From assembly GCA_043764135.1 (NCBI GenBank), contig JAYUKV010000131.1, positions 1-31,201 of the forward strand: a DNA stretch of 31,201 bases. The letters run 5' to 3'. The DNA comes from a bacterium (GTDB lineage: Bacteria; Patescibacteriota; JACMRA01). The translations under genes and the position numbers were made by a program. Positions 4,201 to 31,201 of this stretch are shown piece after piece. Every line of letters begins with the position of its first letter. Position 1 is the stretch's first letter. The notes beneath the pieces were generated by a model that saw only the letters and a list, made by a program, of their open reading frames with translations, made no database searches and was not told the DNA's origin.

Positions 4201-6696
4201 ATGTCATACGATCACAGACAAATAGAAACTAATATTCTTAAATATTGGAATGATAATAATATTTATCAAACCATAAATGATTATTCTAAACCAAAAAAAT
4301 ATATTCTTGATATGTTTCCTTATCCTTCTGGTGCAGGTTTGCATGTTGGACACCCAAGAGGCTATGTAGGAAGCGATATTCTTGCTAGGTTTTATAAACT
4401 CAATGGTTATAATGTACTTCATCCAATGGGGTTTGATTCGTTTGGTTTGCCAGCGGAAAATTACGCTAAAAAGAATAAAGTAATGCCAGCATTGATTACA
4501 CAATCTAATATCGATACTTTTAAAAAGCAGTTAGAATCATTAGGTTTTAGTTATGATTGGGGCAGGGAACTTGCAACAACAGATGAAGACTTCTTCAAAT
4601 GGACACAATGGATATTTCTAGAATTATTCAAAAAAGGCTTAGCCTATGAAGAATCTACTATGGTTAATTGGTGTCCTGGATTGGGGACCATATTAGCTAA
4701 TGAAGAAGTTATAGATGGTTTAAGCGAAATAGGGTCGTATCCAGTATTTAGAAAACCTTTAAAACAATGGTCAATGAGAATTACTCAATATGCTGAAAGG
4801 TTAAATGATGATCTAAATTTGTTAGACAAATGGCCTGAAAAAATCAAAACAATGCAAGCTAATTGGATTGGTAAATCTACAGGTTATGAAGTTAAATTTC
4901 CTGTTATTAATTCAGATCTATTCGTTGAAGTATATACTACAAGATTAGATACAATTGAATCAAATACTTATTTGCTTCTTGCGCCCGAGCATCCATTGGT
5001 CGGACAATTAACAACAGAAGACAATAAGTCAACTGTAGATGAGTACATCAAGCAGACTTCGCTTAAGTCAGATTTGGCTAGACAAGAGAATCAAGAATTT
5101 ACAGGTTGTTTTACTGGTTCTTATGCTACTAACCCTATTAATGGTATAAAATTACCTATTTGGATTGCTGACTTTGTTCTAGCTCATTACGCAAAAGGTG
5201 CTGTTTTCGGAGATGCGCATGATCAAAGAGATTTTGATCTGGCTAAGAAGTATAATATCCCTTTAGATACTAATATTTATCCAGTTAATGCTACACCTGA
5301 TGAGATTGAAGAAATTAAGAATTTAAATATTTGTTATACAGAATTAGGAGTTGACAGTGAGGGTAGAACAAGTGAAGAGCTTAAGAAGTTTTATGGAGAT
5401 AAGCTAGTCGATCAATCTTTGGCAAAAGTAAAAGTTAATTATAGACTCAAAGATTGGGGATTTTCTAGACAGAGGTACTGGGGTGAGCCAATCCCTGTGG
5501 TGTATGAAATTGATGATAATAAGAAAAAAGTTACAGGACCTATAGCTTTGGATTTTTGTACCCTTCCATTGAGATTGCCTTCAATAGATAACTTTGATCT
5601 AATTGATTATGATACGACAAAAGAAGATCCAGAACCTATTTTAAATAGATTTGAGGATTGGTTGTATGTTCAAGGTTATTATAATGATAAAGGTGAGGTG
5701 ATAACAATTGATGAAAATTCAATTATCCCAGAAGGAGTTGAGATTAAAAACTTTATTAGAGAAGGTAATACTATGCCTCAATGGGCTGGCTCTTCTTGGT
5801 ATTATCTAAGATATATGGACAATAAGAATGATCAAGCATTTGTAGATCCTAAGGCTGAGAAATACTGGAATCAAGTTGATATTTATATTGGTGGGGCTGA
5901 ACATGCTGTACTACACTTACTGTACTCAAGGTTTTGGCATAAAGTCTTATTCGACCTTGGTCATGTAACAACAGTTGAACCATTCAAGGAACTAATGAAT
6001 CAAGGTTTAATCATGGCCGAAGACGGTCGCAAAATGTCCAAGTCGCTTGGTAATGTTATCAATCCTGATGATATTGTTAATGAATTAGGAGCAGATTCAC
6101 TTAGATTATTTGAAATGTTTATTGGTCCGTTTGATCAGAATGTGGCTTGGCAGACTAATGGAATAATAGGTATGAGAAGATTCTTAGATAAAATTGAATC
6201 TTTAAAAACCAAGATCCAGGACCAGACAAATCCTAATCTAGACTTCATTCATAACCTTACAATTAAAGAAGTAACCAACAATATCCAAGATTACAAGTTC
6301 AATTCAGCAATAGCAAGAATGATGGAATGGTGTAATGTTGTTATCAAAGAATCTTTTATAGGCAAAAAACAATATCTCCAATTCTTACAAATCCTAGCTC
6401 CGTTTGCTCCATTTCTAACTGATTCAATTTGGTTGGAATTGGGTAATAGTAAATCAATTCATCTATCCACATGGCCTCAATATGATGAAACCAAGATTAT
6501 TGTAAAATCCAAAGTTATTGGTGTTCAAGTTAATGGAAAACTAAGAGGTGAGATAGAAGTGTTCGAAGAAGATACACAAGAACAAGCTCTAGTTAAAGCT
6601 AAAGAAATTGAAAATGTCTCAAGATTCATTGAAGGGGAAATTACCAAAGTAGTATATATTCCAATGAGAGTATTAAATATAATAGTAAATAATTAA
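4201..6696 (+). CDS. leuS: Leucine--tRNA ligase
   Basis: MFPYPSGAGLHVGH (HIGH), KMSKS, WGFSRQRYWGEPIP, CP1 editing-domain motifs YTTRLDT and AHDQRD, C-terminal VQVNGKLRG. Confidence 0.99.
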   Translation: MSYDHRQIETNILKYWNDNNIYQTINDYSKPKKYILDMFPYPSGAGLHVGHPRGYVGSDILARFYKLNGYNVLHPMGFDSFGLPAENYAKKNKVMPALITQSNIDTFKKQLESLGFSYDWGRELATTDEDFFKWTQWIFLELFKKGLAYEESTMVNWCPGLGTILANEEVIDGLSEIGSYPVFRKPLKQWSMRITQYAERLNDDLNLLDKWPEKIKTMQANWIGKSTGYEVKFPVINSDLFVEVYTTRLDTIESNTYLLLAPEHPLVGQLTTEDNKSTVDEYIKQTSLKSDLARQENQEFTGCFTGSYATNPINGIKLPIWIADFVLAHYAKGAVFGDAHDQRDFDLAKKYNIPLDTNIYPVNATPDEIEEIKNLNICYTELGVDSEGRTSEELKKFYGDKLVDQSLAKVKVNYRLKDWGFSRQRYWGEPIPVVYEIDDNKKKVTGPIALDFCTLPLRLPSIDNFDLIDYDTTKEDPEPILNRFEDWLYVQGYYNDKGEVITIDENSIIPEGVEIKNFIREGNTMPQWAGSSWYYLRYMDNKNDQAFVDPKAEKYWNQVDIYIGGAEHAVLHLLYSRFWHKVLFDLGHVTTVEPFKELMNQGLIMAEDGRKMSKSLGNVINPDDIVNELGADSLRLFEMFIGPFDQNVAWQTNGIIGMRRFLDKIESLKTKIQDQTNPNLDFIHNLTIKEVTNNIQDYKFNSAIARMMEWCNVVIKESFIGKKQYLQFLQILAPFAPFLTDSIWLELGNSKSIHLSTWPQYDETKIIVKSKVIGVQVNGKLRGEIEVFEEDTQEQALVKAKEIENVSRFIEGEITKVVYIPMRVLNIIVNN

Positions 6697-6725
6697 GCAC
6701 CTAACTAATAGTTAGGTGCTTTTTA
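6695..6725. terminator. Bidirectional terminator between convergent leuS and PH-domain gene
   Basis: Perfect 12-bp stem AAGCACCTAACT/AGTTAGGTGCTT with a 3-nt loop, T-rich downstream. Confidence 0.85.
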
Positions 6726-12068: not shown

Positions 12069-12191
12069 TCTTAATTGTTCAAAAACTAACACTTATTAAA
12101 TATATTATCAAATACAATAAAAAATGTAATATTTTTAAGTAAAATGGGTTATAAAAAAGTTCATTTTAATTCAATTAAATTAGCGATTTAT

Positions 12192-12491
12192 GGTGTTTTC
12201 GAACATACCTCGCCCTTTGGCCACTCCTTTCAACCTTGAAAGGAGAAATTCTTAGAAGTTGATTAACAGATGTTGTAAAACATTTCCATTATCTTATTTC
12301 AAAAATAGAAACTCTGCTTTATTTAAAGAACCTTTCAAGGCTGAACCCTCACCTAAATCTTTTTGCAAAAGATTCAGGAAACCTGAAGGGAACCCTCACC
12401 TAAATTCAAACAGTCGATTTTCTCTAAGTTTTAAATTCAAGTACCTGAGGGGTGCGATAGCTAATAGTGATGTGGTTTGTTCGAAAATATC
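12192..12491. mobile_element. REPIN/MITE-like non-autonomous palindromic element, 300 nt
   Basis: Terminal inverted repeats GGTGTTTTCGAACATACCTC / GTGGTTTGTTCGAAAATATC (16/20); internal hairpin CTCCTTTCAA-CC-TTGAAAGGAG; left end repeated at 18441. Confidence 0.55.
12343..12405 (+). repeat. 16-bp direct repeat GAACCCTCACCTAAAT x2, period 47
   Basis: Exact copies at 12343-12358 and 12390-12405, separated by hairpins AATCTTTT/AAAAGATT and TTCAGG/CCTGAA. Confidence 0.9.
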
Positions 12492-17294: not shown

Positions 17295-18185
17295 ATGTTT
17301 GAATTATTTATTTTATTTTGGATTGCATTAGCGGTTTTAGCTGTGCTATTCTTTGGTTCGATAGTCAGAATTGTAAAGCAACAAGAAGTATATATTGTTG
17401 AAACTTTAGGTAAGTATTCCAGAAATTTATCTTCTGGACTTAACTTTACAATTCCTTTTTTAGATAGGATTTCTAAAGTTATTAGCCTTAAAGCAAAAAA
17501 CCTAGACTTTAATATTTTAGCTATCACTTCGGATAAAGTGACTATAACTCTTGATACATCACTAATATATCAAGTGATTGAATCAAGAGCGTATGATGTT
17601 GCATACAAACTTGAAAAACCAGAACAAGTAATCAAGACTACCGTTGAAAACTCAATTCGAGCCTACGTAGCAAAAGAAAACCACGAAGAAATACTTCAAA
17701 AACGAGACGAACTTACAATCTATTTAATTGAACATCTTAAAGTATTAATGGAAGGTTGGGGTTATGAAATCCTAAACTTCCAATTAAAGGATGTTGTTCT
17801 TCCTGCCGAAATCACTTCTGCGATGAGTAGAGTAGTAGCTTCTAAGCGTTTACAAGAAGCAGCAGAGAATGAAGCTGGAGCCGAGTATATCAAAGAAGTA
17901 AAAAAAGCAGAAGCCCAAAAACAAGCCAGAATTCTTCAAGGAGAAGGTCTTGCTGGAGAGAGAAAAGCAATTATCAATGGTTTGGCTGAATCAATTACAG
18001 AACTCAAAACACAAACAGAAGTCTCATCAGAATCAGTTCTAAATATAGTAATGTTAAATCAATATATGGATACACTTAGAACTATTGGAAAAGATGATAA
18101 AGGCAACTCAAAAGTAGTATTTTTAAACTCCAATCCTTCTGCGTTAAATGATGCTATGAATCAAGTAAGTGAGCTAATTAAGTAA
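17295..18185 (+). CDS. SPFH/band-7 domain protein (HIR/QmcA-like)
   Basis: N-terminal TM, IVKQQEVYIVETLGKY..LSSGLNF.IPF, TSDKV, LKDV.LP, GEGLAGERKAIINGL, LNQYMDTL. Confidence 0.93.
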   Translation: MFELFILFWIALAVLAVLFFGSIVRIVKQQEVYIVETLGKYSRNLSSGLNFTIPFLDRISKVISLKAKNLDFNILAITSDKVTITLDTSLIYQVIESRAYDVAYKLEKPEQVIKTTVENSIRAYVAKENHEEILQKRDELTIYLIEHLKVLMEGWGYEILNFQLKDVVLPAEITSAMSRVVASKRLQEAAENEAGAEYIKEVKKAEAQKQARILQGEGLAGERKAIINGLAESITELKTQTEVSSESVLNIVMLNQYMDTLRTIGKDDKGNSKVVFLNSNPSALNDAMNQVSELIK

Positions 18186-18274
18186 ATTCAAACTAAAAGT
18201 GAGACTTTGAAATAGTTACAAATAAATTCAAGGACTAATTTAAAATTTTACATTTGCCAATTAAATAAGTTATT

Positions 18275-18437
18275 TATACTCAAACCACACCAACCCCCAT
18301 CTAATATAGATAGAAAAAATTGGATATAATAGTGACTATTTCAAGCTTCTTATGCTTTGCATAAAAGATTGAGATAGTAGCTATTAGATACTATTTTGGC
18401 ATTTAGATAAGGTGGAGGTTGGTATGGTTTGAGTATA
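18275..18437. repeat. 163-nt fold-back element (candidate MITE or 6S-like ncRNA)
   Basis: Arms TATACTCAAACCACACCAACC (18275-18295) / GGTTGGTATGGTTTGAGTATA (18417-18437) match 20/21; ATCTAA/TTAGAT extension; inner hairpin 18336-18377. Confidence 0.8.
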
Positions 18438-18440
18438 TAT

Positions 18441-18560
18441 GATGTTTTCGAACTTACCTCGCCCTTGGGGCACTCCTTTCAACCTTGAAAGGAGAGTTTC
18501 TTCGAGGCTGATTTATTTATGTTGTATCAAAGTAATTCAAATAGTAGAAATTCTACTTGT
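18441..18560 (+). repeat. Partial second copy of the 12192 element left end
   Basis: GATGTTTTCGAACTTACCTCGCCCTTGGGGCACTCCTTTCAACCTTGAAAGGAG aligns with 12192-12245 with few substitutions; similarity decays through TAGAAATTCTACTT versus TAGAAACTCTGCTT. Confidence 0.9.
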
Positions 18561-18662
18561 TTTTATTCCCATTTCAGGCGATTAAATAATTTTTGTGTTT
18601 GACATTTTTCATTAAATTCTGCATTGCTTAAAACTACTATTTAAAGCACTGGAGAAAATTCT

Positions 18663-19184
18663 GTGAATACTTCTGACTTAACAATCGCAATTAACACCAA
18701 AACTTCAAACTACGAATTGTATGTACTAATTCCTGAATGCTTAATAGGATATGATCAAACTATTATTGATCAATACGCACATTGCATTTTTAGAACTGTG
18801 GGTAAAAAACTACTATGCAGTGATAAAAATTCGGATAATATTAAAATTGAATCTAGGAGTGTTTTGAATTACTTTAGAACTTTAGGATTGGATGTTGATT
18901 ATCAACATTTATCAGTTGTAAGTTACACCTCCCTACTTTTTTTTCTCAAAATCAAAAAGCGAAGTTTTCTCAAACCCTTTAAATTCGAATCTTGTTCTTT
19001 TTCTCAAATATCAACTTTACAAGAACAGCTCTGTGATTTTTCACTGTCTCTTGTAAACTTGATAGATTCCCAATCGTTAGAAGCAATAATCAAGCATAAA
19101 ATTCCATTTGAAAATGTGTTCGATTCTGCTATATTTACACGATGTTTTGAGAGTGTAAATAGTAACAAATTTACCTTTGTATAA
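18663..19184 (+). CDS. Hypothetical protein, 173 aa (GTG start)
   Basis: GGAG SD 8 nt upstream, TTGACA at 18599-18604, terminator at 19201. Confidence 0.75.
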   Translation: MNTSDLTIAINTKTSNYELYVLIPECLIGYDQTIIDQYAHCIFRTVGKKLLCSDKNSDNIKIESRSVLNYFRTLGLDVDYQHLSVVSYTSLLFFLKIKKRSFLKPFKFESCSFSQISTLQEQLCDFSLSLVNLIDSQSLEAIIKHKIPFENVFDSAIFTRCFESVNSNKFTFV

Positions 19185-28185: not shown

Positions 28186-28348
28186 TAGACTTCCCCACAT
28201 TTAAAATTTTTAATTAGAAATTAGAAAAATATTTAGAATTTTATGATTTTTGTTTTCCTCTTATACCTATGTATAAAGGAAAACAAAAATTGTAAAATTA
28301 TAGATATTTAGCAATTTTTAATAAAATTATTAAATGTGGGGGAGTCTA
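28186..28348 (+). repeat. 163-nt near-perfect fold-back hairpin upstream of the methyltransferase
   Basis: By hand, 73 bp paired and 17 nt unpaired, with a CTAT loop at 28267-28270; outer arms TAGACTTCCCCACATTTAA/TTAAATGTGGGGGAGTCTA. Confidence 0.92.
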
Positions 28349-28386: not shown

Positions 28387-29103
28387 ATGGACTTCTCACA
28401 AGTCAACACACAATTCTACCAAGATATTTTTAAAATTTGGAATAACGAACCTGATTATTATTGGGACGGTTTCTGGTATCTATACAGCTATTTTGATCAA
28501 TGTTTAGAAGGAATTGACTCACCTAGGGTCTTGGATATTGGGAGTGCTAATGGAAGATTCTTTAATTTTCTTGAATTCTGCTGGCCAGAAAAGACGTTTA
28601 TAAAAGTAGGGATTGATTTTGTTGATTTTAAGATGGTGAATAACTATGATTTTATAAAATGTGATATTTCTAAAGAACAGTTCTTAGATCTTGATTTGGG
28701 GAAGTTTGATCTAATTACAGCCTTTGGTGTATTCCATCATATACAGTCACAACAAGTAAGAAATACAATCACTAACAAGATCAGTTCAATGCTATCTGAT
28801 AATGGTGTATTTGTATTTACTAGGTGGAATTTTCTTTTACTAAATAGACTAAGAAAACACATCCTCACACCTGAGCAAATTCCTAATTTTGATGCTAGTA
28901 GTCTAGAATTGGGTGACTATTTTTTAAAATGGGATAAAGGGCAATACTCTATTAGATATGCCAATTTTATGGATATATTCCAAATCGAGCAAATGTTATA
29001 TAAATCTAATTTGAAATGTCTTAATTCATTCAATGCAGACGATAAAACTGAAAACAGGAATTCATACTTCATATGTAATTTGAAAGCAAGGATATATAGC
29101 TAA
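28387..29103 (+). CDS. Class I SAM-dependent methyltransferase (likely start ATG 28387)
   Basis: VLDIGSANG motif I, GIDF, FDLITAFGVFHHI motif IV, LSDNGVF. The ORF-track start at 28336 lies inside the hairpin arm and upstream of a TTGACT -35 box at 28349. Confidence 0.88.
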   Translation: MDFSQVNTQFYQDIFKIWNNEPDYYWDGFWYLYSYFDQCLEGIDSPRVLDIGSANGRFFNFLEFCWPEKTFIKVGIDFVDFKMVNNYDFIKCDISKEQFLDLDLGKFDLITAFGVFHHIQSQQVRNTITNKISSMLSDNGVFVFTRWNFLLLNRLRKHILTPEQIPNFDASSLELGDYFLKWDKGQYSIRYANFMDIFQIEQMLYKSNLKCLNSFNADDKTENRNSYFICNLKARIYS

Positions 29104-29261
29104 TTACTACTAAAAAAAATTACATTTATAACTACAAATATCCCAATATTTATCACTTCTTATTTTACTTTAACCATTGGGTTAAGAGTAAAATAACGAG
29201 AAATAAATATTGGGATATTTTATTCATTCTAAATGTACATTTTTAGTAGTAATTAGCTATA
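29095..29261. repeat. 167-nt fold-back hairpin overlapping the methyltransferase stop codon
   Basis: Perfect 22-bp outer arms TATAGCTAATTACTACTAAAAA/TTTTTAGTAGTAATTAGCTATA; perfect 18-bp AAATATCCCAATATTTAT/ATAAATATTGGGATATTT; 67 bp in total; ATTG loop. Confidence 0.92.
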
Positions 29262-30944: not shown

Positions 30945-31201
30945 GGTTTATTTTTTGGTTATTAAGATATCAATAGAGATAGTATTCAAAGTTTTGGAAT
31001 ACGAATCAAAACATTACTTCGTATAACCAAAAGAATATCAAATTAGAATATTTATTGTTGTTCCTAATAATATTTTGAAAAGTATTATTATGAATTACAA
31101 TATAATTATAGCCTATTCACCTTTTAATTGTACAAAATAATCGAATAAAATTTATCTAGATATTGATTCTGTTATTTATCTCTTTACCCAATGGTAAAAG
31201 A

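Follow-up and report, generated by a model that had tools for sequence, protein, structure and literature searches.

The stretch of DNA analyzed here (the window, 31,201 nucleotides) lies on contig C131 of a MAG of 1,386,021 bases in 156 contigs, which is 85% complete and has a G+C content of 31%. Between an SPFH/Band-7 gene (17295-18185) and a co-directional 173-aa ORF without a Pfam match (18663-19184) lies a 163-nt fold-back at 18275-18437, which starts 89 nt past the stop of the former gene; the ORF begins 225 nt beyond it. The fold-back stands between the two in its better-folding orientation, and a convergent RecJ gene is located farther downstream of the ORF. The element is small and non-coding, with no ORF of 60 aa or more overlapping its 163 bp, and among the inverted repeats that a repeat finder detected in the window it is the longest, its 47-nt arms showing 79% complementarity. 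It folds as a single long hairpin on either strand, with a minimum free energy (MFE) of -69.0 kcal/mol for the plus-strand RNA (z = -11.3) and -61.1 kcal/mol for the minus strand (z = -10.4), and none of 200 dinucleotide-preserving shuffles (0/200) folded as well. The fold-back noted in the original prediction, which offered 6S RNA and MITE as alternative readings, is thus real. The features of the locus are the following.

18245-18274, plus strand: left flank with weak homology to the upstream part of the family-2 paralogues, representing the other side of the interrupted site (BLAST and alignment of the reconstructed empty site)
18275-18437, no strand: fold-back, non-coding, very probably a full MITE copy; best RNA fold on the window plus strand, 12 copies in the MAG, fold z = -11
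18275-18276, no strand: left TA, a putative target-site duplication, judged for the window copy from the TA at most ends in the MAG and from shared-TA junctions in sister families
18277-18299, plus strand: left terminal inverted repeat (core of 25 nt counting the TA), one mismatch to the consensus TATACTCAAACCACACCAACCTCCA
18336-18377, no strand: apical stem-loop with the loop TTT at 18356-18358, from the MFE structure and present in all full copies
18413-18435, minus strand: right terminal inverted repeat, one mismatch to the family consensus
18436-18437, no strand: right TA, a putative target-site duplication on the same grounds as the left one; an empty site with one TA reconstructs to TATATGATG
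18438-18530, plus strand: family-2 repeat module with two small hairpins, the second terminator-like; 85% identity to 12186-12277

Twelve copies of the element, distributed over 10 contigs, were found in the MAG. Seven of them, counting the window copy, are full-length, three are cut by contig ends (C11, C138, and C79), and two are truncated (C120 and C37). Identity to the window copy ranges from 83 to 98%, and the family forms one size class. All aligned copies have common borders, starting with TATACTCAAACC and ending with GGTTTGAGTATA, and alignment with their flanks revealed nothing shared outside these borders. The terminal inverted repeats measure about 25 bp, and the 25-nt ends are present with zero to five mismatches in all copies. 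This terminal sequence is confined to both ends of the copies; no solitary 25-nt end was detected in the MAG. All full-length copies are intergenic, one of them directly abutting a stop codon, and the truncated copy on C120 overlaps an ORF. Orientation with respect to neighboring genes is mixed, with approximately four copies in sense, approximately four in antisense, and two between convergent genes. The original prediction had proposed copy number as a means of deciding between its two readings, a single copy favoring 6S RNA and multiple copies a MITE, and the 12 copies, which are dispersed, sharply bordered, and dissimilar in their flanks, decide in favor of the latter.

The family consensus is an almost perfect hairpin, in which 140 of 163 nt are paired (-89.6 kcal/mol). 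The copy at C29:4172-4334 folds at the consensus energy and does not differ from the consensus at any paired position, and several pairs of copies are 96 to 98% identical, which suggests a recent spread of the element. Among the copies, 34 substitutions at paired positions break the pair on both strands, whereas pairing is kept by wobble on one strand only in 14 cases on the plus and 10 on the minus strand, and a single double change at paired positions is shared. This pattern is one of neutral decay, with no signal of structure-preserving selection. Taken together, we regard 18275-18437 as very probably one copy of a MITE, that is, a 163-bp, non-coding, non-autonomous DNA transposon.

BLAST searches with the element returned no match in 60 related genomes, sampled from family to phylum level, nor in plasmids and phages, and no match was obtained with the 25-nt end, allowing three degenerate positions, in genome and metagenome contigs. 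The same element was present, with 4 to 13 differences, in contigs from one algae and one freshwater metagenome (two public runs), where no fewer than three distinct left flanks were seen. In the algae run, the genes flanking the window copy are found as well, at about 91% identity, which together with the other insertion sites points to a close relative carrying the same family elsewhere in its genome.

A pattern search for both 12-nt ends, spaced 125 to 155 nt apart (149 to 179 nt in total), for which we estimate about 0.1 chance matches per collection, identified 47 metagenome stretches and 21 in species-representative genomes; no match was found in viral contigs. After removal of duplicates, 62 distinct elements remained, of which 56 are 161 to 164 nt long. 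The genome matches fall in MAGs labelled Flavobacteriaceae, Flavobacteriales, Bacteroidetes, Saprospiraceae, Simkaniaceae, and Glaciecola, and several source runs of these sister elements are algal or freshwater. Three groups can be distinguished, a Bacteroidota type, a Simkaniaceae type, and that of the MAG studied here, which diverge completely past the terminal 13 to 14 bases. The interiors of the sister elements are unrelated to the window family; each is still a fold-back with inverted ends of 21 to 34 nt, and an Rfam search on ten sister loci assigned them to no family. In five sister genomes, the 12-mer occurs 9 to 21 times versus 0 to 3 times for the reversed control, and most of the seemingly unpaired ends belong to complete copies whose opposite end differs by a single base.

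Nearly identical MITE copies were observed in a Saprospiraceae MAG (loci L101, L107, and L117) and in the 'Glaciecola' MAG (L106, L110, L116, and L118), which belong to different phyla and were both binned from metagenome 3300053770. Either a recent transfer or mis-binned contigs would account for this sharing, and the Glaciecola bin needs caution. In one metagenome organism (L077, which is Ga0256827_10001730, L089, L098, and other Ga0256827 contigs), sister MITEs occupy many intergenic regions, often in tandem and sharing a TA, at a density unusually high for a bacterium.

It is conceivable, if somewhat short of an even chance, that these groups form a cross-phylum MITE superfamily, defined by a terminus of about 13 nt consisting of TA and TACTCAAACCA, a length of 161 to 164 bp, and a free interior, with members in Bacteroidota, Chlamydiota (Simkaniaceae), and the small-genome lineage represented by this MAG. 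Such a superfamily would be driven by one hypothetical family of TA-targeting transposases moving between aquatic bacteria. If this holds true, the fixed length might reflect a mechanical need of the enzyme, such as the geometry of a paired-end complex on a hairpin-prone substrate.

TA is found at most of the element ends in the MAG, and two ends read AA. Sister families provided a closer view of the target site, as copies in the metagenome contigs richest in them are often arranged head to tail. In at least eight junctions, which read GAGTA-TA-TACTC, a single TA both closes one copy and opens the following one; in two junctions the copies simply abut, and a four-base overlap was found in none. 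A single-TA junction is the outcome predicted for TA duplication if the TA adjoining an existing copy serves as the target of a new insertion. Duplication of TATA is disfavored, since it would give a four-base overlap. The element proper would then be TACTC...GAGTA flanked by a duplicated TA, which for the window family we infer from these junctions and from the TA at most of its ends.

Removal of the window copy in silico showed that family-2 homology crosses the junction and reaches leftward beyond the MITE by some 17 nt or more. In BLAST, the reconstructed empty site aligned across the junction to 12172-12277 and to the copies on C76, C28, and C15. With one TA kept, the site reads TATATGATG, as in most paralogues, while one paralogue fits better with none. 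The paralogous sites cannot separate duplication of the TA from its absence, because the site lies in a TA-rich run. As judged from this alignment, the window MITE is a nested insertion into, or at the edge of, a family-2 repeat. A search for an orthologous empty site via relatives of a Flavobacteriaceae host found the flanking genes to align and the intergenic DNA to be too diverged.

TA duplication is a signature of the IS630/Tc1-mariner group. Considering that the MITE probably duplicates its TA target, it may move by cut-and-paste transposition in the manner of IS630/Tc1-mariner-type elements. A transposase supplied in trans would bind and cut the inverted-repeat ends of about 25 bp, and the MITE would be reinserted at a TA dinucleotide, which would thereby become duplicated. 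The window copy landed in an intergenic region, within a repeat of a different family.

Among bacterial MITEs, those with TA at their termini, such as Correia/NEMIS, RUP, and ERIC, are well described, and several of them lack a known parent (PMC2229807). The Correia/NEMIS elements of Neisseria, which measure about 107 and about 155 bp, have terminal inverted repeats of about 24 bp, TA termini, and a target duplication; when transcribed, they would fold into a long stem-loop, and they have no known cognate transposase (PMC2229807). The window family is similarly small, non-coding, and multicopy, with TA ends, a long hairpin, and no parent found. Compared by described properties rather than with a reference sequence, it differs in that its sequence appears to be unrelated, it resides in another host, it has one size class, and no IHF site or promoter is demonstrated in it, a promoter scan having yielded nothing above shuffled sequences. 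The Correia terminus also differs from that of the window family. RUP of Streptococcus pneumoniae is a bacterial MITE that inserts at TA, with a tendency to settle within or beside other mobile elements (PMC2229807), reminiscent of the window copy, which lies in another repeat, and of the tandem arrays in sister families. RUP is 107 bp long and has been proposed to be mobilized by IS630-Spn1; it has perfect inverted repeats of 9 bp and a known candidate parent insertion sequence whose ends match, whereas the window family has 25-bp ends and no parent was found. Stowaway-type MITEs and other Tc1-mariner-IS630 derivatives of eukaryotes and giant viruses, with TA duplication, a length of about 100 to 300 bp, and hairpin potential, likewise combine conserved terminal bases with a free interior; the hosts of the window family, in contrast, are bacterial. 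The kind of element is ordinary, and the family appears to be undescribed.

The search for a parent transposon covered the MAG, the sister loci, and several other MITE-bearing genomes. In the MAG, no IS630/DDE_3 transposase was found with PF13358 and NF033545, and the mariner model PF01359 gave no match, which is uninformative, as the control genomes were silent too. A lone end at a distance of 0.4 to 5 kb from its partner was found neither in the MAG, nor in 68 fetched loci, nor beside 20 unpaired ends in four other genomes. The ORFs located between ends were ordinary genes and one homing-endonuclease-like ORF replacing part of an element. IS630 copies were present in two MITE-bearing genomes, but these are fragments or bear ends of another kind; among them, the one IS630 transposase of a Flavobacteriaceae MAG (G061) belongs to an element with different ends. 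The MAG's own transposases were rejected as a parent, their ends being unrelated (rve on C73 and C117; DDE_Tnp_1 on C113, C117, and C124; Y1 fragments on C110 and C83). A literature search with the terminal 12-mers returned only chance matches to primers, and the terminal sequence TACTCAAACC could not be tied to any described transposase. The absence of a parent is weak evidence, since the MAG is 85% complete and has visibly lost high-copy mobile DNA, as indicated by a 96-nt repeat at its contig ends.

Several observations were made on the mobile DNA surveyed in this search. On L089, a 277-aa ORF (5879-6712) that is homing-endonuclease-like by reading of its sequence, with a sub-threshold HTH_38 as its sole Pfam match, ends inside a sister MITE, in roughly its final 36 nt, as if replacing the remainder. 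A 96-nt sequence is identical at no fewer than 22 contig ends of the MAG, always reading inward (for instance, C73:1-96, C110:2-97, C46:1-96, and C94:3044-3139), and probably represents one end of a high-copy insertion sequence, the body of which the bin has lost. On C110 it is closely followed by a degraded Y1 (IS200-like) transposase gene, and on C73 by a transposase gene of the rve type. The rve-type genes (HTH_32, rve, and rve_3) at C73:95-1099 and C117:1600-2602 are 69% identical. Insertion sequences with DDE_Tnp_1 transposases were found at C113:7755-8820 (1066 bp, with 20-nt inverted ends, GAGGCTGTCTAAAATCTTTT) and at C117:576-1471 (896 bp, with an ORF of 266 aa).

A MITE by origin may have been adopted by its host at the RNA level, with co-transcribed copies serving as RNase III targets, transcript stabilizers, or attenuators. 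For NEMIS in Neisseria, a role involving RNase III has been described (PMC2229807). We consider such a secondary use of the window family unlikely. It would fit the very stable hairpin, the position of the window copy between co-directional genes in its better-folding orientation, and the fact that every full copy folds better on the same strand, by 8 to 29 kcal/mol, and the consensus by about 22 kcal/mol. Such an asymmetry might point to a role as RNA. Inheritance from a master copy explains it too, and since it traces to five G-T wobble pairs in the consensus, it amounts to one inherited observation rather than twelve. Furthermore, the mixed orientation of the copies to their flanking genes argues against this use, as do the substitutions, most of which abolish pairing, with no preference for either strand (14 versus 10).

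Less probable still is a REPIN/PATE-like element moved as a single-stranded hairpin by a Y1 transposase of the IS200/IS605 or RAYT type instead of a DDE enzyme. In its favor, hairpins are what Y1 enzymes act on and the element comes close to a full palindrome; remnants of Y1_Tnp genes are also present in the MAG on C110 and C83. To our knowledge, however, Y1-mobilized elements have no long terminal inverted repeats and no target duplication, whereas inverted repeats of 25 bp form the ends described here, and neighboring sister copies have a single TA in common. Moreover, the Y1 genes are degraded, with an internal stop or reduced to fragments, and their contigs do not carry this element. A REP/REPIN system with RAYT, for which one would expect short palindromes in inverted pairs, no duplicated target, and an intact Y1 gene with the repeats on either side, was rejected for the same reasons, namely Y1_Tnp fragments on element-free contigs, long inverted-repeat ends, and the TA shared in sisters.

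That the fold-back is the host's 6S RNA gene is refuted, and another small RNA gene with a single function can practically be dismissed, as a size of 163 nt and a rod-like fold are all that it has in common with 6S RNA, and against this stand 12 copies with transposon-like borders, the lack of a conserved central bubble in the consensus, the lack of any match to the element in 60 related genomes, and the silence of RF00013, which at E <= 1 matched nothing in the window or the whole MAG while responding in 5 of 14 control genomes. At gathering thresholds, no Rfam family reached its score anywhere in the window, and at E <= 10 the region 18100-18700 hit only plant microRNA-precursor hairpin models, with 37 bits against a threshold of 200. 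The structural details that had evoked 6S RNA were in part confirmed. The 21-nt closing arm with one C-A mismatch and its ATCTAA/TTAGAT extension are present as described, and so are the apical stem (18336-18344 paired with 18369-18377) and its inner TTATGC-TTT-GCATAA hairpin at 18350-18364. An open A/T-rich central bubble is not among them, as most of 18305-18335 is paired with 18378-18402 in the MFE structure, where no more than small internal loops stay open. At paired positions, four substitutions are private to the window copy, and all of them break pairs on the plus strand; its 6S-like layout is therefore the decay of one copy of a near-perfect consensus hairpin and not a conserved design. 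Nor is the long hairpin evidence of an RNA gene, since the element is nearly a full palindrome, formed by inverted repeats and a self-complementary interior.

With the MITE reading, one false small-RNA candidate is removed from the annotation. Three copies sit at contig ends, and the element thus accounts for assembly breaks at three sites. The genome is small (approximately 1.4 to 1.6 Mb) and low in GC, and yet it carries several families of short repeats in unusual abundance, with recent activity of at least one of them. Genomes of the sampled phylum-level relatives are 0.5 to 2.0 Mb in size. Genetic code 25 was tried and left the ORFs unchanged, and the genome uses the standard code; a search of the MAG for an ATP/ADP translocase gave no match, with the control giving no response either. 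The identical 12-nt ends and the length of 161 to 164 nt in at least three phyla provide a handle for finding a pairing of transposase and ends that would be undescribed, as well as for tracing the horizontal spread of mobile DNA among uncultured aquatic bacteria. This conjunction of ends and length is the single feature worth following up, and its wider point is modest but real.

Other repeats of the window deserve separate mention. The original prediction had also considered a REP-like family common to the fold-back and the element at 12192. The 9-mer CAAACCACA on which this was based occurs twice in the window, and two or more occurrences were obtained in 6 of 100 shuffles, so that the link is at chance level, and the 12192 element ends in a different inverted repeat, of the TTTTCGAAC type. 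A module of the family to which the 12192 element belongs, family 2, does adjoin the MITE directly on its right at 18438-18530; it shares 85% identity with 12186-12277, recurs in the MAG in about 20 further copies, and is unrelated to the MITE family. Among these further copies are C91:9523-9611, C28:49-107 with 198-144, and C88:1048-1096 with 1385-1334. Family 2 has a conserved core of about 55 nt with two small hairpins. The second hairpin, at 18473-18494 in the window, exists in the variants CTCC...GGAG and CCCC...GGGG, a compensatory double change, and is followed by a T-rich tail, resembling a terminator. The modules often form inverted pairs, and many copies have a conserved AT-rich stretch of about 80 nt upstream. 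Family 2 may represent the end of another MITE family.

Two further fold-backs of the window are also repeats, at lower copy number than the MITE. For the fold-back at 28186-28348, one full copy and two partial matches were detected (C94 and C38). The fold-back at 29095-29261 has a full copy of 93% identity on C126, and its core gives about 20 partial matches, several of them at contig ends, including 31143-31200 in the window itself.
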